A stretch of DNA of 64,000 bases, taken from the NCBI GenBank assembly GCA_009692555.1, contig SHYY01000003.1, forward strand, positions 25,937-89,936, given 5' to 3'. Below are positions 17,439 to 62,480 of the stretch, in pieces; position 1 is the first letter of the stretch, and each line of letters begins with the position of its first letter. The translations under genes were made by a program, and so were the position numbers. Below the pieces are notes generated by a model. It ran no database searches. It saw nothing but the letters and a program-made list of their open reading frames with translations, and was not told the origin of the DNA. The DNA comes from Myxococcales bacterium (GTDB taxonomy: Bacteria; Myxococcota_A; Polyangia; Palsa-1104; SHYY01).

Positions 17439-17518
17439 TCGGTCCATCTGTGGTCTTCACCCCCACCCCGCCAGAAATAAACACGAATAATTACAGGTCA
17501 TTGAAGCTCAATCGATCG

Positions 17519-17534: not shown

Positions 17535-17562
17535 CGTAGCCCCGATCGGAGGTTTTCCCCCC

Positions 17563-19149: not shown

Positions 19150-19235
19150 CGCGCGCAAAAGATCCTTTCAAAAAATTAGCTCCGCTCCGCGTTCGAGCGC
19201 AAGCTCGGCGGCGTTCACGCGAGCGAGAGAGCAGA

Positions 19236-36127: not shown

Positions 36128-37113
36128 CCCGCGGCCCGCTGGAGCGAGAGCCGCGCCATGCGCTCGAGCAGCGGAGCTCCGCACTCGCGGATCACCGGCG
36201 CGGCGTCTTCCACCCCGGGCGCGAGCTCGAGGCGGTGTCCGAAGATCGGGCCGAGCAGCGCATCGACGTCGTCGGGGGCGACGTGATCCCGGCCGCGGAT
36301 CATCGCGCGCGCCTGGAGCGCCGGCAGCGCCATCACCAGCGAGCGCGTCGACGCGCCTTGCAGCACCCGGCGATCGGCGCGCAGGGCCCGCGCGATGTCG
36401 ACCAGCGCCTCGTGCACCGCCGGCGTCACGTGAACCAGCTCGTGGCAGGCGTGGCGCGCTGCCACCACCTCGGCCCGGCCCACCCGCGGCAGCGACTCGG
36501 GCACTCCGCTCCGACGCTCCTTCGCGGTGAGGAGCACGTCGAGCTCGGCCTCGCGCGACACGTCCTGCATGCGGATCTTGAAGAGGAAGCGGTCGAGCTG
36601 GGCGACCGGGAGGGGGTAGGTGCCGGCGAGATCGAGCGGGTTCTGGGTCGCCACCACGAAGAACAGCGCGTCGAGCTTGTGGGTGGTGTTGTCCACGGTG
36701 ACCTGCTTCTCCGCCATCGCCTCGAGCAGCGCCGACTGCACCTTCGGCGAGGTGCGGTTGATCTCGTCGGCGAGCACGACGTAGGCGAACACCGGGCCGC
36801 GCCGGAAGGAGAAGGCGGTGGTCGCCGCGTCGAACACCGTCACGCCGGTGACGTCCGACGGCAGGAGATCGGGGGTGAACTGGATGCGCCGGAACCCGGG
36901 GATGTCGTCGTCGGGCTGGTCGTCGATGATCGAGTCGCCGAGGGTCTTGGCGAGCAGCGTCTTGCCCGATCCGGGGTAGTCCTCGAGCAGCACGTGCCCG
37001 TCGGCGAGCAGGGCGATCAGCACCAGCTCGATCACGTCGTCGCGCCCCTTGACGGCGGCGGCGAGGCGAGCGCGCAGGCGGAGGACAACCTGCTGTGCGG
37101 CGGCGAGATCCAT
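36124..37113 (-). CDS. MoxR-family AAA+ ATPase
   Basis: 329 aa with HVLLEDYPGSGKT (Walker A), VVLADEINR (Walker B) and the FFVVATQNP motif. Confidence 0.9.
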   Translation of the reverse strand: MDLAAAQQVVLRLRARLAAAVKGRDDVIELVLIALLADGHVLLEDYPGSGKTLLAKTLGDSIIDDQPDDDIPGFRRIQFTPDLLPSDVTGVTVFDAATTAFSFRRGPVFAYVVLADEINRTSPKVQSALLEAMAEKQVTVDNTTHKLDALFFVVATQNPLDLAGTYPLPVAQLDRFLFKIRMQDVSREAELDVLLTAKERRSGVPESLPRVGRAEVVAARHACHELVHVTPAVHEALVDIARALRADRRVLQGASTRSLVMALPALQARAMIRGRDHVAPDDVDALLGPIFGHRLELAPGVEDAAPVIRECGAPLLERMARLSLQRAAG

Positions 37114-37366
37114 GGGGCGGTCTTCTACTTTCGCTCGCGCGGCGGGCCGCGACGAGAGGCTAGAGCATCGACCAGTTTACCCGGACCGAGCCCGCCGAGG
37201 GCCATTTCGGGTCCGGCGAGGCGCGAGGAGGGAGCAGGCTGGCGGCCTGTGACCGACGAGCAACGAAGTCGGGCGCGAAATGGGACCGGCCGGCGACGGG
37301 AGCGGTAGACTGATCGGTGCTCCAGGGGCGGGGCGGGAGCCAGGCCCGATTGTACGACGGCGGCGA

Positions 37367-39571
37367 TCATCGCGTCCGCAGCCATGACGTCGGATCGAGC
37401 GCGCCGAGCAGCCGCAGCCAGAAGGGCGCCGCCTGCCTCGCCTCGCGGGTCGAGGTCCTGGCGAGCCGCAACATCTCCTCGGGCGGCGCCAGAAGGGTCG
37501 AGCCGAAGGCGCGACCGATGTGCTCGCGGGTCAGCTCGCCGAGCGCCGGGGCGACCGCCCCGAGCCGCGCCGCGAACCGCTCGCGTGTCTCGCCCGGGGC
37601 GCGCCGCCAGCCCAGCTCGGCGAGCCGATCGAGCGCCGCGCGATAGGCGACGCGGTGGACATGGCGGGTGCCCGCCAGCGACGGTACGGCGAGCCGCCAC
37701 AGCTTCACCGCGTAGAGCAGCGCGAGCAGCCCGAGCAGCCCGAGCGCGGCCCACCGGCCGATCCGGCCGAGATCGAGGCCGCTCCCGGGGCGCGGCGGGA
37801 GCTTGCCCGCCCTCGGATCGCCGCGCGCCAGCTCGCCGAGCATCCGCTGGAGGTCGGGATCGGGAGGGGTGTCCGGGGGATCGAGCGAGCGCTCGGGCGC
37901 CACGTCGACGATGATCCAGCCGAAGCCGTCGAGGTACAGCTCCGCCCAGGCGTGCGCGTCCTTCTGGCGCAGCAGCAGCGTCGAGCCGGAGCCGCGCCGC
38001 CCCTCGTCGGCGACGTAGCCGGCGGCGATCCGCGTCGGGAGCCCGCGGGCGCGCAGGAGGAAGGCCGCGGCGTGGGAGAAGTGCACGCAGTAGCCGGTGC
38101 GGTCGCCGAACAGGAAGTCGGCGGTGGGATCGCCGGCGCCGGCGTGCTGCGAGCGGGTGCTGTAGATGCCGTTCTTGCCCAGCCACGACGAGATCGCGAT
38201 CGCCTGGGCGAACGGGTCGTTGCGATGCTCCGGGCGCAGCGTGGTCTGCACGATCCGGTCGGCCAGCTCGCGGTAGCGCGGATCGTCGGGCAGGCCGGTG
38301 TAGGCCGCGGCGGCGCCGGCGGTCCAGCGGGACGAGCGGCGGCCGAGGAGATCCTCGTAGCGCAGCGCCAGCGACGAGGAGGTGACGTCGTACAGGCGCT
38401 GGAACCGGCCCGCGTCCGGTGAATCGCGGGGCACGAACTCGGTCGGCGACTCGAGGCCGAACGGGCGTGCGTGCTCGGCCAGGAGCGCGACGGTGGTGTG
38501 GACGACCGTCCGCTCGCGGCTCTCACCGCCCTCGGGCGCATCGGGGACGGCGATCCGACCGGTCGGGAACTCGGTGAGGATGTCGCGATCGATGTCGTCG
38601 CGCGTGCGGGCGACGAGGCGCCGGCCGTTGTACTGGCTGAAGGCGGTCTGGCGGAAGTAGTAGTAGCCGAGCGGCGGCGAGTAGTCGTCGTGCAGGATCA
38701 CCACGGCGACCGGGGAGTCCTGCGACTTCGACGAGTAGTCGTCCTGGAATTCGAGCTGCGTGAGCTGGTCGCCGCCGCGTGCAGCACCGCGCTCGCCGCC
38801 TCCGTTCCGGGCGCCCTTCACCCGCGCCTCGCTCTCCTTTGCGCCCTGCCCGATGCCGCCTCCCCGCGGGTGCGGCGGTCCGAGGACGCGAAACAGGAGC
38901 AGCAGCAGGGCGGCGAGCACCGCCGCCGACCCGAGGTGCAGGAGCACGCGCCCCCCGCGGCCGCGTCGCTCCCGGAGCAGCGCCAGCACGAGCAGGACCA
39001 GCGTCCCAGCGCCGAAGGCGAGCAGCAGGTGCTGCGGATCCCGGCCGGTCGAGAGCGCCCAGTCGGAGAGCCAGCGCGGATGATTGATCGCCCCGTCGCG
39101 GTGGGCCGCGGTGACGCCCGCCAGCGCCAGCGCGACCGCGATCAGCTCCCCGACGGCGAACACCGGATAGCGCACCGCCGTGGTGCGCAGGACCAGCACC
39201 GCGCCCATCCCGAGCACGCCGTAGCGGACCAGATCGGCGCCCTCCAGTGCGACGCGTGGACCGATCCAGGCGGCCGCGTTGCCGTCGACCAGCCAGCCCG
39301 CCACGAGGATTCCGAGCCAGCTCGCGATCAGGGAGCCGGCCCACACCACGAACAGGCGGACCCGGCTCCGGGCGAGCCGACCCGCCGCCAGCGCCGCGAG
39401 CACGGTTCCAACCACCGCGCCGAGCCATCCCGCCGTCAGCGCGATATCGAGCACTGCCGCGCCCGCCGCCGCCGCGAACACCAGCGTCCGCACGGCAGCG
39501 ACGAGCCGGGACTCGGGCGCGGGGTCGATTTGCGCGATCACTTCATCCCCGCGGCGGCGCGACCCATCCAC
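37367..39571 (-). CDS. Transglutaminase-like membrane protein (TgpA-like: N-terminal TMs + transglutaminase core + DUF4129-like tail)
   Basis: GDRTGYCVHFSHAAAFLLRARGLPTRIAAGY...DAHAWAELYLDGFGWIIVD supplies the Cys-His-Asp core. It has about 6 N-terminal TM helices and a late TM. Confidence 0.85.
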   Translation of the reverse strand: MDGSRRRGDEVIAQIDPAPESRLVAAVRTLVFAAAAGAAVLDIALTAGWLGAVVGTVLAALAAGRLARSRVRLFVVWAGSLIASWLGILVAGWLVDGNAAAWIGPRVALEGADLVRYGVLGMGAVLVLRTTAVRYPVFAVGELIAVALALAGVTAAHRDGAINHPRWLSDWALSTGRDPQHLLLAFGAGTLVLLVLALLRERRGRGGRVLLHLGSAAVLAALLLLLFRVLGPPHPRGGGIGQGAKESEARVKGARNGGGERGAARGGDQLTQLEFQDDYSSKSQDSPVAVVILHDDYSPPLGYYYFRQTAFSQYNGRRLVARTRDDIDRDILTEFPTGRIAVPDAPEGGESRERTVVHTTVALLAEHARPFGLESPTEFVPRDSPDAGRFQRLYDVTSSSLALRYEDLLGRRSSRWTAGAAAAYTGLPDDPRYRELADRIVQTTLRPEHRNDPFAQAIAISSWLGKNGIYSTRSQHAGAGDPTADFLFGDRTGYCVHFSHAAAFLLRARGLPTRIAAGYVADEGRRGSGSTLLLRQKDAHAWAELYLDGFGWIIVDVAPERSLDPPDTPPDPDLQRMLGELARGDPRAGKLPPRPGSGLDLGRIGRWAALGLLGLLALLYAVKLWRLAVPSLAGTRHVHRVAYRAALDRLAELGWRRAPGETRERFAARLGAVAPALGELTREHIGRAFGSTLLAPPEEMLRLARTSTREARQAAPFWLRLLGALDPTSWLRTR

Positions 39572-39592
39572 GCAGGGTAGCGCATGCGCCGC

Positions 39593-40915
39593 CTAACCGC
39601 CGCCATAGCGCCCCCCCGTTGCACTCCCGCCGTACGCTCGCGGCGAGAAATTCCGGTGGACCTTGCCGCTCGGCCGCTCGATTGCGGTCACCGTCGCCCC
39701 GACGGCGGCAAGCTCGGCGGCGATTGCCTCCAGCTCGGAGAGCCGCGCCTCGTCGGGGCGCTCCTGTGGGCGCGCGAGCAGCCAGCCGCCGCGGCGCGGC
39801 CGGTCAGCGATGGCATCGCAGCCAAGCAGCACCTCGACCGGGACCCCCAGCGCCCGCAGCTGCGCCACGGCTGTTGGCAGCCACGGCCCGCGCCGGGCCG
39901 GCGCGAAGAGGACGAGGCGGCCCCCCAGGCTGCGCGCCCGGCCCGCGAAGGCGGCCAGGCCCTCGGCGCCCCGCTCCCGCGCGCTCCGCGACCGGACGAT
40001 CAGCCGCAAGGCGGCGTCGAGATCGCGCGCGCACTCGTCGGAGCCGGCAGCGCCGAACCACCACTCGGCGCCGAGGGCTCCCGACTCGAGCGCCAGACGC
40101 GCCAGCCCGGCGGGCGGCTCGTCCCCCTCGCCAGCGACGAGAAACCCGAACGTGCGGCGCGCCGGGGAGACCGCGCGCTCGGGCACCCTGACCATGAGCG
40201 TGCGGTTGCGCGCGTAGGCCTTCCAGAGCACCAGCTTGATCGGATCCCCGGGCGTGTAGCGGCGCATCTCGATGCGATCCCCGTCGGGCGGCGGCGCGGG
40301 GTGCGAGAAATGGTCGCCCCCGATCAGTGCGCGCATGAGCGGGGCGGTGGGCGGCCTTCCGCGCGCCGGCAGCACGGTGCGCATCGCCGGCTCGCAGAGG
40401 CGTAGCCGGACGCGCGCCAGGCCGAGGACGTCCTCGACCACCAGCTGGCGGACGGTCCGCTGGTGCTCGCCCCGCTCGCCGTGCACCACCACCTCGTGCT
40501 GTCGCCCTCGCCTCTCGACCACCGACACCGCGACTCGTTGCGGATCGAGCCACTCCCATCGGGTGGAGATCAGGGGCAGCCAGCGGAGCCCGGCGAGCGA
40601 GAACCCGGTCTCGACCGCCACCCCTGCGTCGAGCCGCTCCTCGCGTGGAGTGGCCGGCCGGAAGGAGAGGCGAAGCCCGAGCGCGCAGAGGGAAACCAGC
40701 GCGGCCGAGAGCACGCAAAGGCCCATCACGCCGTAGCCTGCGACGTAAAGGATGAGGTCCTGGCGCTCGCTCCCGTAGGCGAAGACGGCGAGGGCGCCAG
40801 CGACGGAGAGCAGCAGGCCGGAGGGGGTCGGCGGGAGGAGATCGAGGCCCCGCTTGACGACGTTCAACAGGGCGCGGGGAGAACGACTTGGCCCGACGGC
40901 GGGCAGGGGAACCAT
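39593..40915 (-). CDS. DUF58-family protein
   Basis: IEMRRYTPGDPIKLVLWKAYARNRTLMVRVPE matches the DUF58 signature (R.Y.pGD....I.WkasAr). It has two N-terminal TM helices. Confidence 0.8.
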   Translation of the reverse strand: MVPLPAVGPSRSPRALLNVVKRGLDLLPPTPSGLLLSVAGALAVFAYGSERQDLILYVAGYGVMGLCVLSAALVSLCALGLRLSFRPATPREERLDAGVAVETGFSLAGLRWLPLISTRWEWLDPQRVAVSVVERRGRQHEVVVHGERGEHQRTVRQLVVEDVLGLARVRLRLCEPAMRTVLPARGRPPTAPLMRALIGGDHFSHPAPPPDGDRIEMRRYTPGDPIKLVLWKAYARNRTLMVRVPERAVSPARRTFGFLVAGEGDEPPAGLARLALESGALGAEWWFGAAGSDECARDLDAALRLIVRSRSARERGAEGLAAFAGRARSLGGRLVLFAPARRGPWLPTAVAQLRALGVPVEVLLGCDAIADRPRRGGWLLARPQERPDEARLSELEAIAAELAAVGATVTAIERPSGKVHRNFSPRAYGGSATGGRYGGG

Positions 40916-41018: not shown

Positions 41019-41570
41019 CTACTCGATGTCGCTGATGACGAAGAGGCCCGAGCCGCCCTTGAGCGAGAGGTCGGCCTGGACGGTGGCGGTGCGCTCGTAG
41101 TGCGAGACGGTGGCGTCGCAGTTCAGGTTGCCGTTGGCATACAGACGCGAGATGTGGCCACCCAAGTTGCCAAGGGCGTTGGCGGTCGTGCTGTACCAGA
41201 AATAGTGCGGGTCATCGACCGAGAAGTTGAGCGCCTGCCACGTCGCCCCCTGCCACTGCGAGGTGTTGGGCTGGCACTTGTTACCCACCTGGCCGCAGCA
41301 GGCGTTGAGGGCCGGCGTAAACCCCTGCGAGGACGGGAACATGCGCTGGACGATGTTGCCCGCGCTGTCGGCGTGCTCGGCGACGTGGTAGGTGACCGTC
41401 GAGTCGTACATCTTGCGGATGTTGAGGGCCGCCTCGGTGGTCTTGGAACGCCGGATGTACTTGATGAACGCCGGGATCGCGACCGCCGCCAGAATGCCGA
41501 TGATGGCGACGACGATCATGAGCTCGACCAGGGTGAAGCCTCGAACCAGAGAACGCAGTTTCCGCGACAT
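41019..41570 (-). CDS. Type IV pilin-like protein (prepilin N-terminal cleavage/methylation domain)
   Basis: [11 protein letters not shown]|[36 protein letters not shown] has Gly-1, Phe+1 and Glu+5. The C-terminal globular part carries conserved Cys residues. Confidence 0.85.
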
Positions 41571-41621
41571 GAAAGCCTCCTAGAGAAGTGGTTGGGGTTG
41601 GGTGGGCAGTCGGGCGGCTAT

Positions 41622-41637
41622 CCAAGTTGTGTGCCAG
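41622..41637 (-). promoter_or_regulatory. Sigma54-like promoter CCTGGCAC-N5-TTGGA upstream of the pilin gene
   Basis: The -24 element is perfect. The -12 element reads TTGG instead of TTGC. It lies ~50 nt upstream of the ATG, which is preceded by GGAGGC. Confidence 0.35.
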
Positions 41638-41731
41638 GGAAGGAAGGCCGCACTGGCGGGGGGATCGTACCTCGAAGGCCTTGGATTGTGACCTTTTTTG
41701 TCACCGCGGGGACCTTTTCCGGCAGCGGCCG

Positions 41732-42298
41732 CTAATCGTTTTCGCTGATCATGAGGAGGGCTCCGCCGCCACGGATCTGGACCTCGCCATCGAGGGTGAG
41801 GGTGCGCTGGAAGAACGAGGTCGCGCCGTCGCAGTTGAGGTCCCCCATCGCCTGGACCTGGGAGAAGTCACCGACCTTGCTGCCAGCACCGAGGGCGTGC
41901 ACGGTCTGGTAGGAGAAGTAGAACGGCTCGTCGACGCTGAAGTTCAAGGCCTGCCAGGTGGGGGTCCGCCAGTGGGCGGGGTTTGGGGCGCACTTGAATC
42001 CGGGCGAGCCGCAGCAGGTGCCGAGGGCGGGACTGATGGACTGTGCGTCGGTGAACTGGAACGCGAGGACCTTGCCGGCGGCATCCGCGTGGATGGTGTG
42101 GTGGTAGGCGATCGCGGAGTCGTAGATGACCCGGATGTTCATCGTCGCCTCTACGGTCTTCGAGCGGCGGACGTAATGGATGAAGGAGGGGATGGCGATC
42201 GCCGCGAGGACGCCGATCACGGCGACGACGATCATCAGCTCGACCAGGGTGAAGCCGGCCGGGAAGGGCGTGGATGAGGCTCCGGGGCGCCGGTTCAT
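41732..42298 (-). CDS. Type IV pilin-like protein (paralog)
   Basis: MNRRPGASSTPFPAG|[36 protein letters not shown]. It shares [13 protein letters not shown] and NCD motifs with the neighbouring pilin. The start is set at ATG 42298; the listed ORF extends spuriously through the repeat. Confidence 0.85.
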   Translation of the reverse strand: MNRRPGASSTPFPAGFTLVELMIVVAVIGVLAAIAIPSFIHYVRRSKTVEATMNIRVIYDSAIAYHHTIHADAAGKVLAFQFTDAQSISPALGTCCGSPGFKCAPNPAHWRTPTWQALNFSVDEPFYFSYQTVHALGAGSKVGDFSQVQAMGDLNCDGATSFFQRTLTLDGEVQIRGGGALLMISEND

Positions 42299-42311
42299 GC
42301 GCGCCCGCCAC

Positions 42312-42327
42312 CCAAGAGCCGTGCCAG
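42312..42327 (-). promoter_or_regulatory. Sigma54-like promoter CCTGGCAC-N5-TTGGG abutting the 57-bp repeat
   Basis: The motif architecture matches 41622..41637, but the -12 element is only ~14 nt from the ATG. This implies a nearly leaderless transcript or a non-functional site. Confidence 0.3.
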
Positions 42328-42448
42328 GCTCAGTCCCCGAAGACCCAGGGGACGCTTTGGAGCCGCCTGCGGCGGGTCGGTGAGGCTCAGTCCCCGAAGA
42401 CCCAGGGGACGCTTTGGAGCCGCCTGCGGCGGGTCGGTGAGGCTCAGT
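42327..42448. repeat. Perfect 57-bp tandem repeat x2 plus an 8-bp third partial copy
   Basis: 42327-42383 and 42384-42440 are identical (GGCTCAGTCCCCGAAGACCCAGGGGACGCTTTGGAGCCGCCTGCGGCGGGTCGGTGA). 42441-42448 repeats GGCTCAGT, which contains the cytochrome stop codon. Confidence 0.95.
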
Positions 42449-44684
42449 GGGCATGCCAGCCCAGGGCGGAGTGGCAATCGGCGCAGCTCCAGCCGCGGAA
42501 CATGTGGTTGGGGTTCTGGGGGCGGTCCTTGGCGTGGCAGGTGACGCACTCGGTGCGGAGGCCGGTCCACTGGTTGTTCTTGTGGCAGTCGGCACACGGG
42601 GTGACGAAGTGGCGGCCGCGCAGGGGGAACTCGCTGCGGTCGTGATCGAAGCGCACCAGGAGCCAGCGATCGGGCTTGTGGCAATCGGCGCATTCGCGGC
42701 CCAGGGCGCCGCGGTGGGGGTCGCCGTGGCAGCTCTGGCAGGCGGGGTCGAGGCGGGCGCCGCGGGCCGTGTCGTGGCAGGTGAGGCACTTCACGGCGGC
42801 GTGGCGGCGCTCGAGGGGGAAGCCGGTCTTCTCGGCGTGCGCGAAGGGCGGGACGTCGGCGAAGCGGGTGGGCTGGTGGCAGCTCGTGCATTCCTTGCCG
42901 AACTGCGCGCCGTGGACCGCGGTGTGGCAGGTGGCGCAGGTGATCGGGCGCGCGACCTTGCTCAGGCGCTCGCGATCGGCGCCGTGGCAGGAGGCGCAGG
43001 CGCGCTTCGCGTGGGCGCCTGAGAGGGCGAAGCCGGTGGCGGCGGCGTGGTCGAAGTTCACGACCTCGTTGAAGCTGGTCTCGGTGTGGCAGCGACGGCA
43101 GTCGGTGCCGAAGCGGGCGCCGTGGGCGTCGGTGTGGCAGGAGGCGCAGGCGGTGGGTGTGCCGACGAACTTGCCGCCGGTGTGGCAGCGCGCGCACGCG
43201 ACCTTCTCGTGCGCCGCGCGGAGCGGGAAGGCGAACTTCGCGTGCTCGGCGAGGCCGATCGTCGAGGGCTTCCACGAGGTTCCGGTGTGGCAGTCGCGGC
43301 ACGACCAGCGCGGCGAGACGGCGTGGGCTCCGTCGTCCGGGGCGAGGTGGGCGCGCGCTTGCGAAGGCGCAGGCAGCGACGGTGATGCGGCTTTCCGCGG
43401 AGCCTTGAACTGGCCCTCGTGCGGGTCGCCGTGGCAGAGAACGCAGGCGTTCGGGCCGGGGACGAAGGCGCCCTTGGCAAAGCGGGTGTGGCAGGTCTGG
43501 CAGGCCACCGGGGAGTGCGCGCCGTCGAGCGGGAAGCGGGTGGTGTCGTGCGAGAAGCGCGCGGGGGTGAAGCCCTTGGTGTCGTGGCAGGCGGCGCAGG
43601 GGCCGAAGTCGCCGTGCTTGGGGGCCTTCGGGCCGGTCAGGAGGTGGCAGCTCTCGCACTTCGTCGGCGCGCCCTTGAAGATGCCGGGCCTGGTGTGGCA
43701 GCTCTCGCAGCCGACGGTGAGGTGCATCCCTTCGAGGGGGAAGCCGACAACTTTCTTGTTGTGGTCGAAGGTCTTCTTTTTCCAGGAGAGCGCGGAGTGG
43801 CAGCGCGCGCAGGCGCCGAGGTCCTCGTGCTTGAGATCTTTCTTGTGGCAGGAGGCGCACTCGAAGGGCGTGGGCTCGAACTTGTAGGCGGGGTGGCAGG
43901 AGAGGCAGGGCGCGGTCTGGTGCTTGCCCGGGAGGATGCAGGCGCAGAAGTCGTGGGCGTGGGTGGCCTTCTTCCAGTCGAGCGGGGTGTGGCAGGTGTC
44001 GCACGCGGCCTTGGTGCCGCCGTGCTTCTGCTCGTGGCAGTCGCCGCAGCTGGCCTTCGCGACGTAGTGGGTGCCGTTCTTGTGGCAGGTGGCGCAGATC
44101 AGGCCCTGGTGGCCGCCGATCATCGGGACCTTGTGATCGGCGGCGGTGCGCGTCGGGGGGACCCAGGCGGCGCTGCTGTGGCACTGCTGGCACTTCGGGC
44201 CGAGCGAGCCCTTGTGGTGGGTGTCGGCGTGGCAGCCGACGCAGGTGGTGGGGATTCCGGCCCATTTCGGGCCGTGTCCACCGTCGGGGTGGCAGCTCTG
44301 GCAGAGGGCCGGCTGGTGGGCGCCGGTGAGGACGACGCCGGTGACCTTGTGATCGAAGGTCTTCGGATCGATCGGCGGGGTGAGGCGGAAGTCCCGGCCC
44401 TTGTGATCGCCGTGGCAGGCGCTGCACTTCTGCTTGGCGAGCGGGCCGTGGAAGCCCTTGCCGGAGCGGACCTGGGCGGCGGTGTGCTCGTGGCAGGAGA
44501 GGCAGTTGGCCTGCGGGATGCCCTGGAAGGGGACGTGGCATTTGTCGCACTTGCCGTCGAGGGCGGCGTGCGGGGCGGCGAGCGGGCCAGGAGTGACGAG
44601 CCCGCGGAAGTCGGCGCGCGCGGATCTGGAGAGCAGCCCGAGAAGGGCGGCGACGGCGACGAGTGGGAGGGCGCGGCGGATCAC
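42444..44684 (-). CDS. Multiheme cytochrome c, 30 CXXCH motifs in 746 aa
   Basis: A GTG start overlaps the upstream stop (GTGA). The signal peptide is VIRRALPLVAVAALLGLLSRSARA. I counted 30 CXXCH motifs, about one per 25 residues, with many extra His residues as distal ligands (c3/c7-type density). Confidence 0.9.
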   Translation of the reverse strand: MIRRALPLVAVAALLGLLSRSARADFRGLVTPGPLAAPHAALDGKCDKCHVPFQGIPQANCLSCHEHTAAQVRSGKGFHGPLAKQKCSACHGDHKGRDFRLTPPIDPKTFDHKVTGVVLTGAHQPALCQSCHPDGGHGPKWAGIPTTCVGCHADTHHKGSLGPKCQQCHSSAAWVPPTRTAADHKVPMIGGHQGLICATCHKNGTHYVAKASCGDCHEQKHGGTKAACDTCHTPLDWKKATHAHDFCACILPGKHQTAPCLSCHPAYKFEPTPFECASCHKKDLKHEDLGACARCHSALSWKKKTFDHNKKVVGFPLEGMHLTVGCESCHTRPGIFKGAPTKCESCHLLTGPKAPKHGDFGPCAACHDTKGFTPARFSHDTTRFPLDGAHSPVACQTCHTRFAKGAFVPGPNACVLCHGDPHEGQFKAPRKAASPSLPAPSQARAHLAPDDGAHAVSPRWSCRDCHTGTSWKPSTIGLAEHAKFAFPLRAAHEKVACARCHTGGKFVGTPTACASCHTDAHGARFGTDCRRCHTETSFNEVVNFDHAAATGFALSGAHAKRACASCHGADRERLSKVARPITCATCHTAVHGAQFGKECTSCHQPTRFADVPPFAHAEKTGFPLERRHAAVKCLTCHDTARGARLDPACQSCHGDPHRGALGRECADCHKPDRWLLVRFDHDRSEFPLRGRHFVTPCADCHKNNQWTGLRTECVTCHAKDRPQNPNHMFRGWSCADCHSALGWHAH

Positions 44685-46120
44685 AGCGCGTACCCCAGCT
44701 GGACCAGCGTCCGGAGCTGCTTCCCGTCGAGGGCCAGCTCGGCGTCGAGGCCGGCGAAGAAGTCGCGCCAGAGCGCGAACAGGCGGAGGTAGGCGATCCG
44801 CTGCGCGCCCAGGACGAGCGGGAAGAGCTCGCTCGTCGGGCCGGCGTCCATGGCTTGCTTGGCGTGATTCGAGAAGGCGAGCCCGGTGCCGATCGCGTCG
44901 GTGTAAAGCACGCCGACGCGCGCGTCGAGCCAGGGGCGGAGGAACGATAGGCCGCCGGTGACGACGAGGTTGCCGCGCGGCTTCTTGCACTCCAGCGGCT
45001 TGGCGGGGTCGCACTCGATGCGGTCGACCTGGTAGACGTCGCCGCCGACGGTGGCGAAGGCGCCGAAGCCGGCGAGCAGGTTCTCCGCGTCGACCTGGCC
45101 CTCGAAGCGGTGGATGACGTCGGTGTTCTCGCGGAAGCGCAGACGGTAGCGCGCACCGACGCGGAGGGCGCGCCAGATCCGCACCCCGGCCTTCAGGGTG
45201 TGATCCTCGAACGAGCCGCCAGCCGCGGCGATCGCGTTGTTGAGCGGCTGCACCGGGACGAGCAGGCGCACGCGCTGGAAATCGAAGGCGTAGGAGAGGC
45301 GGAGGCGCTTTTGCGGCCGCCACTCACCGACGGCGTAGGCCATGAGCGATCCGATCGGCTGGCTGTCGACGGTCGGGACGTCGGTGAAGTGGCCGGCCTG
45401 CGACGAGTAGGTGACCAGGTAGCGCGAGCCAAGCGTCAGGCCGCCCGCGAGCATCACGTCGGCGTGGGGGAGGACGAGGAGCTGGGCGTCGAGGAAGTTC
45501 TCGTTGGTCTGACGGCTGGCCGGCGTCGCCTCGGCCGCGCCGCGCTGGAACTCGAGGAGATCGTCGGTGCGGGTGAAGAACAGCGAGGCGCGGACCACCG
45601 GATGGTCGACGGCGGCGCCGGCGCCGTAGAGGGGGAGAAGGTGGCCGCGGAAGGTGGCGTCGGCGCGACCGCCGGTGAAGGCGCGGACGCCGCCGTAGGC
45701 TTGCAGCGAGAGGGGGCCCAGGCGGAGGGTGGCCGCGCCGCCGTCGTTGATCAGCCAGAATCCGCCGCCGACCGGGAAGCGACCGACGGTGAGGTCGAGC
45801 CGCCCGAACAGGTCGTTGACCCGCAGGGAGAGGTTGTGGAGCTGGTGGCGCGACTGCTTGCTGTTGTAGCCGAGCGATGAGTCGGCGGCGAGGAACGACT
45901 CGCGATCGCGGTAGTCGAGGCGGAGATCGAAGCGCTTGCCGAGGCGGCGGAGATCGGCGCGCAGCGCGAAGCCGAGGTCGAGGTTGGCCGGGCTGCCGGT
46001 GCCGGGCTGGTTGACGCCGAAGAGATCGATCCCGCCGAGGAGGTGCAGATCGGCAGCGCGGGAGGCCCCGGGGGCAGCCGCGACGAGGGCCGCGGCGGCG
46101 ATCGCCAGGAGGCGTCTCAC
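44681..46120 (-). CDS. Putative outer-membrane beta-barrel protein
   Basis: The GTG start overlaps the upstream stop (GTGA). The signal peptide is VRRLLAIAAAALVAAAPGASRA. Alternating amphipathic strand patterns occur (RLDLTVGRF, LRLSYAFDF, VGARYRLRF) and the sequence is Gly/Asp/Arg-rich with no long hydrophobic helix. The C-terminus is ...VQLGYAL. No family was recognised. Confidence 0.5.
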   Translation of the reverse strand: MRRLLAIAAAALVAAAPGASRAADLHLLGGIDLFGVNQPGTGSPANLDLGFALRADLRRLGKRFDLRLDYRDRESFLAADSSLGYNSKQSRHQLHNLSLRVNDLFGRLDLTVGRFPVGGGFWLINDGGAATLRLGPLSLQAYGGVRAFTGGRADATFRGHLLPLYGAGAAVDHPVVRASLFFTRTDDLLEFQRGAAEATPASRQTNENFLDAQLLVLPHADVMLAGGLTLGSRYLVTYSSQAGHFTDVPTVDSQPIGSLMAYAVGEWRPQKRLRLSYAFDFQRVRLLVPVQPLNNAIAAAGGSFEDHTLKAGVRIWRALRVGARYRLRFRENTDVIHRFEGQVDAENLLAGFGAFATVGGDVYQVDRIECDPAKPLECKKPRGNLVVTGGLSFLRPWLDARVGVLYTDAIGTGLAFSNHAKQAMDAGPTSELFPLVLGAQRIAYLRLFALWRDFFAGLDAELALDGKQLRTLVQLGYAL

Positions 46121-47019
46121 CCGGTCATTCCTGCGCTGTAAATGTAGTGGCCGAGGACGTGGAGAATGGTCGCGCCGAGGAGGATGAAGGTCAGCGGCTT
46201 GTGCAGGATCGTCCAGCCACGGAAGAGGCGCTCGGCCGCGTTGAAGGTGGCGAGGCGGCGGGCGAGCATCACCCGGCGGCGGGTGGCGGCGACGAAGGCT
46301 TCGAGCTTCTCGCGATCCTCCCGCTCGCTGTGCAGCGCGAGGAGCTGGGTCTGACGATCGGCCAGGGCGCGCTCGAGCTGGCGCAGGGCGCGCCGGGCGC
46401 GGAGGTCTTCGCCGAGGATGCGCAGAAGAGGAACCCGGCCGGTCAGCGTCGGCGCGTCCTGCTCGCACGCCGCGATGGCCGCCGCCACCTCGGGGGTGGG
46501 GACATGGCCGCCGACTCCCTTCAGGTCCGCGAGCTCGGCCTCGATCTGCTTCGCGTTGAGGCGATCGCCCGCGAGTGACTTCGGGATGAGCGCGTACAGG
46601 TAGCGCCCGAACAGCCCCGAGGCGACCACGATCGCGACGCACAGGATGTTGAGGCCCTGGATGCTCTTCGCCTGGTGGAGGTGCAGGCTGTGGTAGGTGA
46701 CGAAGAGCGCCCCCTGGAGGCCGAGGAAGATGTGGAGGTGGAGCCAGGAGCGCAGCCTTCCGAGGCCACGCATCGCCTTCAGCCGGCGGCGCAGCGAGTA
46801 GATGTGCATCAGCACCATGGAGGCGGTGCCGGCCCAGCCGAGGAGGTAGCTGTAGCGGCCGGAGCCCGACTGCTCGGGGGCCAGAACGGCGAGGGCCACC
46901 AGCGCGGCTACCTCGGCCAGAAGCAGCGCGTAATAGGCGGCCGGCAGCACCACCTCGGCGGGGGGCGCCGCTTTTTTGTTGATCCCGGTGACCGGCGCAG
47001 CCTGGCTCTCCGTCGTCAC
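46117..47019 (-). CDS. Polytopic inner-membrane protein with two intramembrane His pairs (candidate di-heme b-type/ferric-reductase-like domain) and a cytoplasmic coiled-coil insert
   Basis: 300 aa with 5 predicted TM helices. His96/His110 lie in one TM (WLHLHIFLGLQGALFVTYH) and His273/His287 in the last TM (ILHKPLTFILLGATILH), each pair 14 residues apart. An LRRR...G...W..LH pattern resembles ferric-reductase-type domains. Confidence 0.5.
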   Translation of the reverse strand: MTTESQAAPVTGINKKAAPPAEVVLPAAYYALLLAEVAALVALAVLAPEQSGSGRYSYLLGWAGTASMVLMHIYSLRRRLKAMRGLGRLRSWLHLHIFLGLQGALFVTYHSLHLHQAKSIQGLNILCVAIVVASGLFGRYLYALIPKSLAGDRLNAKQIEAELADLKGVGGHVPTPEVAAAIAACEQDAPTLTGRVPLLRILGEDLRARRALRQLERALADRQTQLLALHSEREDREKLEAFVAATRRRVMLARRLATFNAAERLFRGWTILHKPLTFILLGATILHVLGHYIYSAGMTG

Positions 47020-47135: not shown

Positions 47136-49262
47136 GTGTCCGACGTCCGCGACCCTCCACCGCCGGCGAGGACGCTCGTCGTCGGGCTGGGGCTGATCGC
47201 GCTCCTGGCCGTCGCCTTCGGGACCCGGTTCGTCGCGACCTGGGGCGGGGCGCGGCTCGACGGTCAGTACGTCCTCTCCGCCGACAGCGACCCCTACTAC
47301 CACTTCCACCGTCTCACCTACCTCTACCACCAGCACGCGCCTCTGGTGGTGGACTACCACGCGGCCGCCCCGGCGCGCTTCGAGTGCGTATGGCCCGTGG
47401 CGCTCGAGTACATCGCTCTCTTGCTGGACCGCGCGGTCTTCGGCGCCGAGCGGGACCTCGAGTCGCTGCTGCTGATCGCCGGTTTCGTGCCGGTGCTGTT
47501 CGGGCTGGCGGCGATCCTGGCGGCGTTCGCCGCGTCGCTGCGGGCCACATCGCCGGGGGCCGCCCTTGCCGGCGCGGCCGCGCTCGCCATTGTGCCGGGA
47601 GCGATTCACGTCAGCTCGTTCTCGCTGTTCGACCATCATTGCGTCGAGCTGCTGATCGTTGTCGCGCTGCCCGCGATCGCCGCGCGCGCGCTGCTGGCGC
47701 ACCCCGCCGCGGCGGCGACCGGCGGGTTCGTCAGCCTCGGCCTGTCTGTTCTTGCGGCGGACGCGACCTACCTGGTCATGGCGAGCTTCGGGGCGAGCGC
47801 GTTGCTGCTCGCCCTGCGCGGCGGGGCGAACCCGGAGAGGGACCGCGGGCTGGCACCGTTTCTCGTCGGTGGGCTGGGCGGAGTGGTGAGTGCGTCCGCG
47901 CTCGAGGTGGCCCTCGGGCTGCCGCGGCTGCTCCCGCACGGCGGGAGGATCGGGCTGATGCTGGCCGTCGTCGGGGCGGGGCTGCTGGTCGGGGCGCGGG
48001 TCGGGCGACGCATCGCAGGGATCGCCTGCCTGCTGGTCGCAGCGCCGCTCACACTGCCTACCGTTCTGACCGCCGTCCGGTATCTCACGGCGACCGCCGA
48101 CGCGATCAGTCCGAACATCGCCGAGGCGATTCCGATCTGGCGGAACGTTCCTGCACCGCGGATCGCGGTCTACTGCGGCCTCGCGCTTCTCACAATCGTC
48201 CAGGCGTGGCGGCGGCGAGGCGACGCCAGAGAGGCATTTCCGTCGCTGGCGGCGGCTGGTGCCGCGGTGATCGGGCTGGTCCAGCGGAAGTACCTGTTCC
48301 TCCTCGGGGCGGCCGTGGCGTGGGCCATTTCGCGCACGGTCCACGATCTCGTGCCGGCCGCACCCGGGCGACGGCGACTGGCGGCGCAGTGCGCGATCGC
48401 GGTCGTTCTTTGCGGCGTGGTCGTCGAGCGGACGGGGCATGCCGTCGCCATCGCACCGTCGGACGTCTCGCCCGGCGACGTCGCCTTCGCCCGGCTTGCA
48501 CGCCTGATCGACCAGCGCCTCCCGCCGCAGACGCCGTTCGTTCCCGGATCGCGCCCGGCGTGGGCGATCGCGGTCGAGCCCTCGCTGGGACCGAGGGCGC
48601 TCCACCTCGGCGGGAGGGCGGTCACGGCGCTCCCGTTCTGGGGCACCCCCGAGCTGGCAGGACAGTTCCAGCGCACGCTCCTGGCCCTTCTGGCCGGCGA
48701 CGAGGCCGAGGCGCATCGCCTGCTCGATGGGCTGTCGGCCCGCTTTGTGTTGATTTCTGATCTCGAGCCGCTGCTCCCCTTCGTGATCGCCGCGACGGGG
48801 CGCCCCCCGGCCTCCTTCACCCGCCCGGAGGACGAGCGCGCCGCGATCCGCGGGGCCCTGTGGTACCGCCTCCACCACCTGCGGGGCGCAGCCTCCGAGG
48901 ACGGCGTCCCCGCGCTCGGTCGCTTCCGACTGGTCGCTTCGGCGGGCCATGGCACCGACGGTCTGGCGCTGTTCGAGCGGGTGCCCGGAGCGGAGATCGC
49001 GGGTACCGCTCCCCCCGGCGCGAGGGTGCTCCTGTTCGCCCGGATCCATTCTCCCGATGGCGAGGACTTCACGTGGGTCGCGACGGCTCCCACCGATGCC
49101 GCGGGCCGATTCGCGCTGCGAGTGCCCTATGCCACAGAGGAGGTCGGCGGGCGCGCCCACGCGGTGGAGCTTCGCGTGCGCTGCCCCGGGCGTGAGTTCG
49201 CCCTCGCCGTCCCCGAGAGCGCGGTGGCCAGCGGCTGGCGCGTCGCGGCAGACTGCTCGTGA
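47136..49262 (+). CDS. Large GT-C-like membrane protein, possibly STT3/AglB-related
   Basis: 708 aa. The N-terminal ~480 aa are multi-TM, with SADSDPYYHFHRL after TM1, resembling the DxD..YYH.R first-loop motif of STT3-type enzymes. The C-terminal part is a soluble domain. I could not find a WWDYG motif. Confidence 0.45.
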   Translation: MSDVRDPPPPARTLVVGLGLIALLAVAFGTRFVATWGGARLDGQYVLSADSDPYYHFHRLTYLYHQHAPLVVDYHAAAPARFECVWPVALEYIALLLDRAVFGAERDLESLLLIAGFVPVLFGLAAILAAFAASLRATSPGAALAGAAALAIVPGAIHVSSFSLFDHHCVELLIVVALPAIAARALLAHPAAAATGGFVSLGLSVLAADATYLVMASFGASALLLALRGGANPERDRGLAPFLVGGLGGVVSASALEVALGLPRLLPHGGRIGLMLAVVGAGLLVGARVGRRIAGIACLLVAAPLTLPTVLTAVRYLTATADAISPNIAEAIPIWRNVPAPRIAVYCGLALLTIVQAWRRRGDAREAFPSLAAAGAAVIGLVQRKYLFLLGAAVAWAISRTVHDLVPAAPGRRRLAAQCAIAVVLCGVVVERTGHAVAIAPSDVSPGDVAFARLARLIDQRLPPQTPFVPGSRPAWAIAVEPSLGPRALHLGGRAVTALPFWGTPELAGQFQRTLLALLAGDEAEAHRLLDGLSARFVLISDLEPLLPFVIAATGRPPASFTRPEDERAAIRGALWYRLHHLRGAASEDGVPALGRFRLVASAGHGTDGLALFERVPGAEIAGTAPPGARVLLFARIHSPDGEDFTWVATAPTDAAGRFALRVPYATEEVGGRAHAVELRVRCPGREFALAVPESAVASGWRVAADCS

Positions 49263-49313
49263 CCACCCACCGCGGGCACACGATGGCTGGCCCTGCGACG
49301 CGGGCTCAACCCG

Positions 49314-51308
49314 GTGGCGGTTGACAGCGGCATGTCGTCCGCGGAGCGTCAGCGCAGTTCCCGTCAGGCTCCAAGGGGTGCGGCGGTCGGGTGGCGCGGA
49401 ATCGCCGCGTGGGCGGGGCTGATCGTCGTCGGCGCGCTCGCGCTCTACGCGCCCTCCGTCGGCCACCCGTTCGTGATCGACGACTTCGCCTACATCGCGG
49501 AGAACCAGGCGGTGACCTCGGGCGCTCCGCTGCGCGACTACTTCCTCGAGCGCGCTACCACCGCTGGCGACGCCCACCTCGCGACTCAGTCCTACCGGCC
49601 CCTGCGAACGCTCGCGTTCCGGGCGGTGGTGCGCACCTTCGGGCTGCGCCCGGTGGCTTTCGGGTGGGCGAATCGGGCTCTCTACGCGCTGTCGATCATC
49701 GGAGTGCTCCTGGTAGCGCTGCGGGTCACCCGTGACGCCGCGGCTTCGCTCGTCGCCACGGCTCTCTGGGCCCTCGCGCCGGTCCATGTCGAACCGGTCC
49801 TCTATGCCTCGTCTCTCGGAGACCACCTGTCCCTGCTGCTCGAGCTCGGCGCCCTCGCGAGCGGTGCGTTCGTGATCGGTGGCGGCGCGCTGGCCAGGCC
49901 AGGGCACCCTCTGGCGCGGCCGGCAGGGGTACACACGGCGGCCCTGCTCGGGGCGGCGGCGCTGTCACTCGTGCTCGCTGCCCTGGCGATGCTGGCGAAG
50001 GAGATGGCGGTGACGGCGTGCGCACTGCTGGCGGCGTGGGCGCTCCGGGACGGCCCGCGCGCGCTCGTCCGACTGCGCACGGGGCTCCTGCTGATGGCCC
50101 ATGGGGCGTTGGCGATCGCCTGTGTGGGCGCGGGCGTGGCCGTCCGCGGCACCCCGCTCGGCCACGCGCCAATCGACGCCGCCAGCCTCGGGCACGGCGT
50201 GCGGCAGGCGCCGGTACTCCTGCTCGAATACGCCCGGCTGTACGTCGTCCCGCTCGGCCATCATCCCGGCTATGTGCTGCCCGAGCCATCGGTCGCCGTC
50301 TCGCTCGCTGCGCTCGCCGTTGTCGTTGCCCTGGCGCTGGCCACGTGGAGGGCGCGGCTCCCGGGGCTCGCCCTGGGCCTCGCCGGCTACGCGATCGCGC
50401 TCCTGCCGGTGCTGCAGCTCGTCCCGATCCTCGCCGATCTTGCGGACCGGTTCGCGCTGGTACCGTCGGTGGGCCTGGCACTGGCGACGGCAGCGCTGAT
50501 CACCGCGGCCCCGGATCGCCTCCGGGGCCTCGCGCTCGTGCCGTGCGCCTTCGCGCTCCTGCTTTTTGCCGCGGGCACCCTGGTCGAGCAGCGTGCGTGG
50601 TCGAGCGAGGAGGCGCTCTGGGCGCACTCCGTGGAGCTCGCCCCGGAGTCGGCGCAAGCCCATGCCAACCTGGGGGTGGTGCGGCTGGCCTCCGGGCAGG
50701 CCAGGGAGGCACTGGCGGAGCTCGATCGCGCGCGGGCGCTGGGCCGGCGGGCGGCGCCGCTCGAGTTCCGACGGGCGGTCGCCCTCCATGACCTTGGGCG
50801 CTTCGAGGAGGCGGCGCGGGCCGTCGAGGAGGCGCTCGCGCTCGATCCCCTCCACGGCGCGGCCCATGCGCTGAAGGGCGACCTGTCTCGTCGGCGGGGG
50901 CAGCTCGTGGAGGCGGCCACGGAGCTCGATCGGGCGCGCACGCTGTCTCCGCTTCATCCGTCGATCACGCTGCTCGCCGCGAACCTCGCCGAGGCGAATG
51001 GGCGCCCCCAAGACTCCGCGCGCGAGCTCTCGGAGCTGGTCGGGCGCTCCCCGGAAGTTCCGCGCTTCCAGTATCTCCTCGGTCGTGCCGCGCTGCTCGC
51101 CGGCGACGCCGGCCTGGCGCTCCGGGCGGCGGACGCCTGTCTCGCGCTCGACCACGCGCAGCCCCAGTGCCGCTGCATCCGGGGGCGCGCTCTGACGGTC
51201 ACCGGGCGGGTCGACGAGGCGCGCGTCGCGCTGGATCAGGCGCTCGCGGCTCTCGACGACGGTCCCGAACGTGCGGCGTGCGAGGAGGCGCGGCGTCGGC
51301 TGCCATGA
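49314..51308 (+). CDS. TMTC-like GT-C-fold membrane protein with C-terminal TPR repeats
   Basis: 664 aa with HPFVIDD...SYRPLRTLAF in the first loop. It has about 10 TM helices and at least 6 clear TPR-like repeats at the C-terminus. The start may be the ATG at 49332. Confidence 0.7.
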   Translation: MAVDSGMSSAERQRSSRQAPRGAAVGWRGIAAWAGLIVVGALALYAPSVGHPFVIDDFAYIAENQAVTSGAPLRDYFLERATTAGDAHLATQSYRPLRTLAFRAVVRTFGLRPVAFGWANRALYALSIIGVLLVALRVTRDAAASLVATALWALAPVHVEPVLYASSLGDHLSLLLELGALASGAFVIGGGALARPGHPLARPAGVHTAALLGAAALSLVLAALAMLAKEMAVTACALLAAWALRDGPRALVRLRTGLLLMAHGALAIACVGAGVAVRGTPLGHAPIDAASLGHGVRQAPVLLLEYARLYVVPLGHHPGYVLPEPSVAVSLAALAVVVALALATWRARLPGLALGLAGYAIALLPVLQLVPILADLADRFALVPSVGLALATAALITAAPDRLRGLALVPCAFALLLFAAGTLVEQRAWSSEEALWAHSVELAPESAQAHANLGVVRLASGQAREALAELDRARALGRRAAPLEFRRAVALHDLGRFEEAARAVEEALALDPLHGAAHALKGDLSRRRGQLVEAATELDRARTLSPLHPSITLLAANLAEANGRPQDSARELSELVGRSPEVPRFQYLLGRAALLAGDAGLALRAADACLALDHAQPQCRCIRGRALTVTGRVDEARVALDQALAALDDGPERAACEEARRRLP

Positions 51309-51402
51309 GCGTGCTCGCGGGGCTCGCCGGCAATCGCCGGCGTGCAGCAAGCTCGGAGCGCAACGGTCCAGGAGTCACTCGCCACCCCGCTCGCCGGGAG
51401 GC

Positions 51403-53550: not shown

Positions 53551-53623
53551 GCGCGAATCCTACCATGGTGGGCGAGGGCCGCCCGCTTGCCGCCTCCGTC
53601 GGGGACATGCTAGAAAACGGCTC

Positions 53624-55063: not shown

Positions 55064-55281
55064 TGCACCAGACATTTCCGCGCCGCGGCATTTCCGCGCG
55101 GCGAACTCGACAGCCGACCGGCGCTTGAAGTAGCCTCCCGACCATGGGGGATCGACGACCTCCTCGCCGCTCCGGCGAACTGTGCCATCCACGATGTGCC
55201 CCCGCCCGCCGCCGCGGCACCATCGACGACGGAGATCTCGCCCGGGCGCCCCGGGCGTGGACGGTTGTGGCAGCCTGACGC

Positions 55282-60010: not shown

Positions 60011-60065
60011 GGCGGGAATACTAGCGCACCGGGGGCGCGCGGCGGAAGAGCGGGGACGGGAGCTG

Positions 60066-62480
<2,415 letters not shown>

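Follow-up and report, generated by a model that had tools for sequence, protein, structure and literature searches.

The closest described relatives of the system reported here are the putative porin-cytochrome clusters PCC3 and PCC4, defined by He et al. (2017; PMC5566968; Front Microbiol 8:1584). Both encode an inner-membrane protein (IMP) of about 300 residues with five transmembrane (TM) helices, an SGXXG motif on TM4 and WX3HX13H motifs on TM3 and TM5. The IMP was likened to the ferric-reductase domain and proposed to be a quinone-active dihaem cytochrome b (He et al., 2017). In subgroup II of PCC4 a gene for an Fe-S protein lies directly upstream of the IMP gene, and Table S6 of the same paper lists clusters of a cytochrome, an IMP and an "other redox protein," some of them without a porin (PMC5566968). 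In later papers, Hoover et al. (2023) among the sources on PCC3, the complex is still genome-predicted and functionally unverified.

In this study, we analyzed a stretch of 64,000 nucleotides from a "Myxococcales bacterium" (assembly GCA_009692555.1, contig SHYY01000003.1, positions 25,937–89,936; hereafter the window), with a G+C content of 66–75%. It contains three chained genes encoding an IMP, a predicted outer-membrane barrel and a 30-haem cytochrome (genes 1–3, together the triad), as well as a separate gene pair encoding a predicted Fe-S flavoprotein and a monohaem surface protein. We classify the triad as a reduced form, found in Myxococcota, of the predicted PCC3 complex, with one cytochrome and not two, a compact, divergent barrel and two added partner genes. 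We further propose that the window may encode a five-component, envelope-spanning system for electron export from NAD(P)H to the cell surface, and we consider the chances of this fuller proposal to be about even. The components are as follows.

46117–47019, minus strand: gene 1, PCC3/PCC4-type IMP of 300 residues, predicted dihaem-b transmembrane electron relay
46117–46120, minus strand: GTGA start/stop overlap of genes 1 and 2 (translational coupling)
44681–46120, minus strand: gene 2, modeled outer-membrane beta-barrel of 479 residues with a Sec signal
44681–44684, minus strand: GTGA start/stop overlap of genes 2 and 3
42444–44684, minus strand: gene 3, 30-haem c-type cytochrome of 746 residues with a Sec signal
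56877–58211, plus strand: partner flavoprotein of 444 residues (MSP58985.1, "FAD-binding protein" in GenBank), found by tblastn with neighbors of other IMPs
58208–58993, plus strand: monohaem c-type protein of 261 residues with choice-of-anchor V and MYXO-CTERM domains

An earlier note on this DNA had described genes 1–3 as chained through GTGA overlaps, and both junctions were found where it had placed them; indeed, all of its checkable details were confirmed. The 4-nt overlaps recur among the called genes of relatives. Read off the sequence, the signal peptides end at ASRA/AD in gene 2 and at SARA/DF in gene 3.

In GenBank, gene 1 has an exact match in MSP58978.1, which comes from a metagenome-assembled genome (MAG) labeled "Myxococcales bacterium." Gene 1 carries the motifs W92-x3-H96-x13-H110, S134-G135-x-x-G138 and W269-x3-H273-x13-H287. 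In its AlphaFold2 model (predicted local distance difference test, pLDDT, 86.5), TM helices at residues 27–46, 55–79, 89–111 and 120–143 are followed by a helical insert at about 144–260 and a fifth TM helix ending at 294. The five helices, the His pairs H96/H110 and H273/H287 and the insert of ~115 residues noted earlier are thus all borne out. When 29 homologues of gene 1 were aligned, W92, H96, H110, S134, G135, G138, W269, H273, and H287 proved invariant, so that all four residues of the His pairs are conserved in the family. From the loop charges, by the positive-inside rule, we read the N-terminus and the helical insert as cytoplasmic. This topology would place H96 and H273 near the cytoplasmic face and H110 and H287 near the periplasmic face of the membrane, which would be the arrangement expected of two stacked bis-His b haems; gene 1 is therefore a putative haem b protein. 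In FRD-type proteins (those with a ferric reductase domain), two His pairs 13–14 residues apart on two TM helices ligate two b haems; gene 1 shows this spacing, invariant among its homologues, and its b haems are predicted.

No family was assigned to gene 1 in Pfam or NCBIfam above the cut-off. The ferric reductase domain itself (PF01794) stayed below its cut-off of 28 bits, at 11.1 bits (E = 0.44), hhalign gave a probability of 0.1% against E. coli MsrQ, and hhalign against YodB, for cytochrome b561, found nothing. The PDB held no sequence match to gene 1 and no fold match below E = 0.28. The PCC3 IMP, by comparison, is directly homologous. Gene 1 equals it in size and in its number of TM helices (five), and the two have in common the pair of WX3HX13H motifs, the SGxxG of TM4 and the helical insert; gene 1 shares 27% identity over 246 residues with the IMP of a canonical PCC3 locus, L024 (BLASTP, E = 3e-22), and IMPs encoded in the PCC3 gene order score about 200 bits with the profile of its family. 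Gene 1 has 76 direct homologues, and a search with the family profile yielded 708 proteins, including IMPs of ~300–360 residues, one of them from Aquincola. The inner-membrane module, which the earlier note set apart from CymA, CbcL and ImcH, is thus not of a new type and had been described already as the PCC3/PCC4 IMP (He et al., 2017).

Gene 3 contains exactly 30 CXXCH motifs, as counted before. It matches Pfam Cytochrome_C7 (PF14522) in seven stretches (E = 2.4e-38, 130.2 bits against a cut-off of 24.8), and alignment of its modules resolves ten tandem c7-like trihaem modules with about 24 residues per haem. There are 69 His in the protein, 39 of them outside the haem motifs; with about three additional conserved His per module, every haem could be ligated by two His. 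Gene 3 has only three internal Met, so that probably all haems are bis-His. No PDB sequence match was found, nor a solved structure from a close sequence relative. The 12-haem cytochrome GSU1996 is about 12 nm long; by this measure a 30-haem chain could reach 25–30 nm, enough for the periplasm and the outer membrane. Gene 3 is homologous to the periplasmic cytochrome of PCC3, which has 24–27 haems (phmmer, E = 1e-91 to 1e-93), is equally haem-dense, and with its 30 haems falls in the range of 21–27 or more by which that cytochrome is recognized.

Gene 2 was said to have no recognizable family, and indeed no match was found in Pfam, NCBIfam or among PDB sequences. Its AlphaFold2 model (pLDDT 75, predicted TM-score 0.73) has 22 strands. 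The top 50 Foldseek matches in the PDB are all outer-membrane barrels (FimD usher, TonB-dependent receptors, AlgE, porins), with E-values of ~1e-7 to 1e-8 and TM-scores of 0.3–0.48, and no single match stands out. Gene 2 was also checked for a soluble fold, which would have spoken against a conduit; it models as a barrel instead, in agreement with the earlier suggestion. The family is rare, with 13 close homologues and 103 cluster representatives among 1.84 billion proteins. A weak local match of 14 bits between its profile and the PCC3 porin of ~740 residues (positions 59–171 of the profile hidden Markov model) makes homology only suggestive. We conclude that gene 2 is a predicted barrel of a previously unannotated family, either different from the PCC3 porin or very divergent from it.

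The triad resembles PCC3 also in having its barrel gene within the same operon, and it differs in several respects. PCC3 requires a second, extracellular multihaem cytochrome (10–63 haems), whereas in the 64-kb window gene 3 is the sole open reading frame (ORF) with two or more CXXCH. The barrel has 479 residues here as against ~740. The order is IMP-barrel-cytochrome here, and DUF6502-DUF5666-IMP-cytochrome-cytochrome-porin-ccm in PCC3. The four loci with distant IMPs that we examined have DUF6502, DUF5666, the IMP, cytochromes of 24–27 and 34–49 haems, a 740-residue porin and ccm. In L024 the ccm haem-maturation operon lies directly downstream of the porin gene; this operon is absent from the Myxococcota variant. 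Genes for an Fe-S flavoprotein and a surface monohaem protein are linked to the triad but to none of the canonical PCC3 loci, and the hosts are Myxococcota here and Proteobacteria in PCC3. The open-access literature yielded no description of the Myxococcota variant, only He et al. (2017) and the later PCC3 papers, which is no proof of absence.

Conservation of the gene order was assessed by a scripted co-occurrence scan over 20 loci, later extended. The triad recurs, its gene order and overlaps unchanged, in L001, L002, L004–L008, L011–L013, and L020; L003 and L010 are cut by contig ends, and L003 lacks the upstream flank. Synteny, a further expectation of the earlier note, therefore holds in every related locus with enough flank. 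All loci have multihaem genes, either one with 27–30 CXXCH or two (14 + 16, 12 + 23 or 15 + 23), except that only a 16-CXXCH gene was detected in L016 and L017; the Myxococcota loci L001–L013 have a single gene for 29–30 haems. A barrel of the gene 2 type is detectable in L001–L008, L010–L015, and L020. More distant versions were found in an unassigned metagenome contig (L009) and in MAGs labeled Aminicenantes (L018) and Clostridia (L019), with GC contents of 0.39–0.60. In these three loci the IMP gene is followed co-directionally by a flavoprotein gene, and the opposite strand carries a 23-haem cytochrome, a barrel-like gene of 441–491 residues and a 12–15-haem cytochrome. The gene 2 family reaches the barrels of L009 and L019 only via two intermediate proteins (P0163 and P0188). 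The positions of these cytochrome and barrel-like genes, whose barrels end in FFVRL(I/M)(I/V)RK, are:

L009, 11602–15045
L018, 12540–16725
L019, 12073–16405

These data bear on the possibility that the proteins form a periplasmic electron store or a transmembrane redox complex like Hmc or Tmc, with the barrel an ordinary co-transcribed porin. In Hmc-type complexes, too, a many-haem periplasmic cytochrome of the c3 type is combined with a cytochrome b in the membrane and an Fe-S protein on the cytoplasmic side, and NCBIfam gave a weak match to HmcA (E = 0.0036). Porin-free clusters of IMP, cytochrome and redox protein are moreover present in Table S6 of He et al. (PMC5566968). We consider this explanation highly improbable in view of the barrel gene, which overlaps both of its neighbors by 4 nt, accompanies them in all Myxococcota loci whose flanks are long enough, stands between two cytochrome genes in the distant versions as well, and has diverged in step with the IMP (r = 0.87 for pairwise identities). 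The co-encoded, surface-sorted monohaem cytochrome is a further point against a system confined to the periplasm. A trans-envelope electron conduit, as the earlier note had proposed, is the best reading of the triad, given the invariant His residues, the barrel model and the synteny.

The same note had regarded the locus as self-contained. This was not upheld: it had missed two further conserved components at 56877–58993, namely the flavoprotein and surface monohaem genes at 56.9–59.0 kb, 10 kb from the triad. The flavoprotein consists of an N-terminal TM anchor, a ferredoxin domain for two [4Fe-4S] clusters and a TrxR/YpdA-type domain for flavin adenine dinucleotide (FAD) and NAD(P)H. It matches Pyr_redox_3 (E = 5.6e-40, 137.9 bits against a cut-off of 30), Pyr_redox_2 (92.1 bits against 26.1) and Fer4_10 (E = 6.7e-8) in Pfam. 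Six Fe-S Cys and the GAGPAG and GGGDSA motifs (the GxGxxG/A motifs for FAD and NAD(P)H) are invariant in the family, and no redox-active CxxC is present. With both Rossmann motifs and Pyr_redox_3 and Pyr_redox_2 above cut-off, the protein belongs to the TrxR-like family with two dinucleotide-binding domains. The TM helix is followed by a stretch rich in Lys and Arg, which suggests that the body of the protein is cytoplasmic. Profile matches in the PDB are led by YpdA/Bdr (7a7b, E = 1e-44), followed by TrxR-type ferredoxin-NADP reductases; the nearest solved relatives are all NADPH enzymes. Membership in the YpdA/Bdr bacillithiol-disulfide reductases (TIGR04018) was rejected at 150.9 bits against an equivalog cut-off of 339.9, and in view of the extra TM anchor and Fer4 dicluster domain we regard YpdA/Bdr as a related family.

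The start of the monohaem gene overlaps the flavoprotein stop codon (ATGA), so the two are translationally coupled. Two NCBIfam domains exceed their cut-offs in the monohaem protein, choice_anch_V (NF041895; 104 bits, cut-off 42) and MYXO-CTERM (TIGR03901; 25.8 bits, cut-off 20). The protein falls below the MXAN_6652 equivalog cut-off (117.8 against 200 bits) and has no sequence match in the PDB. Its single CXXCH is conserved beside the flavoprotein gene in L001, L002, L005–L008, and L010–L013. The MYXO-CTERM signal targets proteins to the myxobacterial cell surface, and the monohaem protein is predicted to be the cell-surface end of the chain.

A flavoprotein homologue lies beside the IMP gene or in a cluster with it in 19 of the 22 related loci, 16 of which are independent. 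The two genes adjoin in 17 loci (L001, L002, and L005–L019); the flavoprotein gene follows the cytochrome gene in L020 and is 10 kb from the triad in this window. In most triad loci a divergent pair is located directly upstream, encoding a Fer4 and Pyr_redox protein of 435–470 residues and a protein of 230–255 residues. The linkage is kept in three arrangements (divergent, co-directional right after the IMP gene, and after the cytochrome gene), and pairwise identities of IMP and flavoprotein are correlated (r = 0.88). The scan of species-representative genomes relied on a single narrow peptide pattern, so that the range of host taxa given here is a minimum. Such a linkage to a membrane-anchored Fe-S/FAD/NAD(P)H oxidoreductase points to a cytoplasmic electron donor. 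The quinol that the earlier note had assumed as the entry point has, by contrast, no specific support, the IMP gene being almost always linked to the gene for this oxidoreductase. We suggest, with a confidence somewhat short of even, that the PCC3-type IMP may be the membrane core of a split, NOX/FRE-like and quinone-independent NAD(P)H:extracellular-acceptor oxidoreductase and not a quinol oxidase.

Several observations weigh against this suggestion and against the five-component proposal. In this window the flavoprotein gene pair is 10 kb away from the triad, and in L004 no flavoprotein gene was found within ~9 kb. The canonical proteobacterial PCC3 loci L021, L024, and L025 have none within 10 kb (in L022, a short contig, the upstream flank extends over only 1.5 kb). 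The IMP family can therefore work without the flavoprotein, in keeping with the quinone-linked model that He et al. (2017) put forward. For gene 1, neither sequence nor fold searches gave a significant match to FRD/NOX/MsrQ or to cytochrome b561, so that the analogy to NOX is functional only. Gene linkage and correlated divergence are partly due to shared ancestry, and the hosts in the species-representative genome scan are all uncultured MAGs.

Alternatively, as in the earlier note and the published PCC3 model, the conduit could be fed by quinol. The IMP would then be a quinone-active cytochrome b, as He et al. (2017; PMC5566968) proposed for the same IMP class; it would oxidize (mena)quinol and hand the electrons to the 30-haem cytochrome and, through the barrel, to the outside, and the flavoprotein would have a separate or accessory role, for example in repair or regulation. 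The absence of the flavoprotein gene from canonical PCC3 loci and its distance from the triad in this window are in keeping with such a model. We nevertheless regard it as rather unlikely. Neither a quinone-site motif nor homology to a quinol dehydrogenase was found for the IMP in Pfam, NCBIfam, PDB sequences or by hhalign; the IMP and the flavoprotein are linked in three gene orders, also in the MAGs labeled Aminicenantes and Clostridia; and a pure quinol oxidase would leave the conserved cytoplasmic helical insert unexplained.

In the NAD(P)H-fed system that we favor, the flavoprotein would oxidize NAD(P)H at its FAD on the cytoplasmic face of the inner membrane, and single electrons would pass through its two [4Fe-4S] clusters. 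The b haems of gene 1, ligated by H96 and H273 on the cytoplasmic side and by H110 and H287 on the periplasmic side, would carry them over the inner membrane, in the manner of the ferric-reductase domain of NOX and FRE. Gene 3, as a chain of ten trihaem modules ~25–30 nm long, would cross the periplasm into the 22-strand barrel of gene 2. At the surface, electrons may reach the MYXO-CTERM monohaem cytochrome and/or Fe(III), Mn(IV), humics or O2. We infer the contacts between the proteins, NAD(P)H as the donor, the outward direction, the acceptor and the cofactors from the features described above. As the electron would leave the cytoplasm while the proton stays, the path would dissipate proton-motive force; this would fit an electron sink or an assimilatory or extracellular reductase, and not energy-conserving respiration.

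The direction could also be the reverse, as has been proposed for PCC3 of iron oxidizers, with electrons taken up from extracellular Fe(II), minerals or partner cells and delivered by the IMP to the quinone pool or the flavoprotein. PCC3 is enriched and expressed in Fe(II) oxidizers, and one IMP copy is upregulated in iron-oxidizing cells. For the present locus, inward flow appears quite improbable. Reduction of NAD(P)+ by donors in the range of Fe(II) is strongly uphill, and the inward movement of electrons is opposed by the membrane potential. The haems look all bis-His (three internal Met in gene 3), and bis-His c haems are usually low-potential. Myxococcota are known as heterotrophs and mostly as aerobic soil bacteria; the hosts here are Myxococcota MAGs, and no genes for carbon fixation or iron oxidation were found in the annotated neighborhoods, which cover part of the window only.

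The genes that follow gene 3 on the same strand include two prepilin genes:

41732–42298, minus strand: prepilin gene
41019–41570, minus strand: prepilin gene

The paralogous prepilins and their sigma54-like promoters were described earlier and confirmed here. The two genes are 53% identical and carry the N-terminal methylation motif G/FTLVE (TIGR02532 and PF07963 above cut-offs for the genes tested); they fall below the PilA_Myxo equivalog (58–65 bits against 400). The sigma54-like motif TGGCAC-N5-TTGG occurs exactly twice in the 64 kb, once upstream of each pilin gene, with a chance expectation of 0.08. It had been suggested that the pilins serve secretion or display of the cytochrome, and a role as a conductive filament partner is also conceivable, the pilin genes being immediately downstream of gene 3 on the same strand and a pilin gene lying downstream in the closest relatives too. 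We find a functional part for them in the system barely credible. Each has its own sigma54-like promoter, and most related loci lack them: a pilin gene is near the triad only in L001–L003 and in the P0010 locus (a few genes downstream), an MFS transporter gene intervenes between the cytochrome and pilin genes in L001–L003, and none was detected in L004–L020. The pilin gene travels with a block of DUF58, transglutaminase and MoxR genes and not with the triad; downstream of the triad, the P0010 locus, L001 and L002 have both this block and a pilin gene, whereas in L004 the block is present but no pilin gene. No pilus assembly genes were seen near the pilins. We therefore reject the pilins as part of the conduit, of which they are probably only neighbors. 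In the window, the cluster downstream of the pilin genes (36124–40915, minus strand) encodes a MoxR AAA ATPase, transglutaminase/DUF4129 and DUF58-like proteins.

A perfect 57-bp tandem repeat, also noted before, was confirmed. Its 2.2 copies, 100% identical, lie at 42326–42448 and include the stop codon of gene 3; the repeat extends up to the sigma54-like motif that belongs to the upstream pilin gene. A dispersed element was excluded by the absence of any other copy in the window, and a structured element by folding no better than shuffled sequence (z = 0.33). The repeat appears to be a local duplication that takes in the stop codon of gene 3 and the promoter of the second pilin gene.

Between the triad and the partner genes, which adjoin each other in most relatives, lies a block of ~9 kb of the envelope or glycosylation type (47136–56370). 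The block appears to have come between the parts of the system by insertion or rearrangement. Besides a 546-residue ORF, it holds:

47136–49262: STT3/AglB-like oligosaccharyltransferase gene
49314–51308: TPR membrane protein gene
51403–53550, minus strand: MFS/spermidine-synthase-like gene
55282–56370, plus strand: Acyl_transf_3 gene, split by a single in-frame TAG at 55675–55677

The TAG presumably stands at a conserved Trp in the W-S-L-A-x-E-E-x-F-Y motif of the acyltransferase family (here H-T-*-S-L-A-I-E-E-H-F-Y), and it looks like a TGG-to-TAG nonsense mutation, with the gene a pseudogene, or like an assembly error. The flavoprotein gene pair is flanked at 59000–62480 (minus strand) by genes for a DUF6929/DUF6910 protein and for a Ser/Thr kinase that has a PEGA domain. 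Genes of both types also occur in the P0010 locus, where they precede the barrel and cytochrome genes by a few kb. Elsewhere in the window, positions 16000–20000 show a strong positive AT skew (+0.32 to +0.34) and a GC content of ~0.67–0.68, lower than in the rest.

Clusters of the PCC3 type, with their conserved IMP, are widespread in iron-cycling bacteria. The Myxococcota variant is compact, with one cytochrome, one small barrel and one IMP, and its conserved partnership with an Fe-S flavoprotein and a surface cytochrome adds a testable hypothesis on the electron donor of the PCC3-type IMP, namely NAD(P)H. If true, this would be a new inner-membrane crossing for extracellular electron transfer in diderms, extended to Myxococcota, and would provide a minimal parts list for engineering. 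It would also give a function to the IMP of PCC3 and PCC4 in iron-cycling bacteria; in Myxococcota, the oxidoreductase might serve iron acquisition, redox balancing or the formation of extracellular superoxide. Should the NAD(P)H reading be wrong, the locus would still add a useful new branch to PCC3, together with a barrel family that had not been annotated before.

Among characterized systems, membership of the triad in the Mtr, FRD/NOX/MsrQ or cytochrome b561 families is not supported by family profiles or fold searches, and the comparison is one of architecture. With NOX, FRE and MsrQ (PF01794) the proposed system would share the logic of electron flow from NAD(P)H via flavin and two stacked bis-His b haems to an acceptor on the far side. 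It differs in that gene 1 has no detectable homology to them and five TM helices instead of six; the dehydrogenase is a separate Fe-S flavoprotein of the TrxR type here and a fused plant-type FNR domain in NOX and FRE. With MtrCAB, MtoAB, PioAB and the Geobacter Pcc complex (OmbB-OmaB-OmcB) it shares a multihaem cytochrome presumed to be inserted into an outer-membrane barrel. Gene 3 scores only 17.9 bits against the DmsE/MtrA decahaem model (TIGR03508, cut-off 192.2); gene 2 has no MtrB-type Pfam match, and MtrB is absent from its top 50 fold matches. The Mtr and Pcc conduits are fed by quinol dehydrogenases (CymA, ImcH, CbcL), and a single 30-haem protein here replaces their periplasmic carriers.

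A cytoplasmic-type redox protein beside an IMP with two HX13H motifs is shared with PCC4 and the clusters of Table S6, in which the IMPs belong to another sequence family according to the authors and the cytochromes have 4–10 or 7–18 haems (He et al., 2017). In Listeria and in Hmc and Tmc as well, the route of electron export has a cytoplasmic dehydrogenase or Fe-S protein of its own. Light and colleagues reportedly described in 2018 a flavin-based extracellular electron transfer of Listeria with a dedicated Ndh2; its components are unrelated, it uses quinone, and there is no outer membrane. In Hmc and Tmc of sulfate reducers, a membrane cytochrome b links cytoplasmic Fe-S centers to periplasmic multihaem cytochromes. 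Their components are likewise unrelated, and they have no outer-membrane barrel or flavoprotein of this type. The closest counterparts of gene 3 in build are the polymeric c7-type cytochromes of Geobacter, such as GSU1996 with 12 haems and GSU2210 with 27, which consist of tandem trihaem c7-like modules as gene 3 does. Gene 3 differs from them in being almost free of Met and in standing in one operon with an IMP and a barrel.

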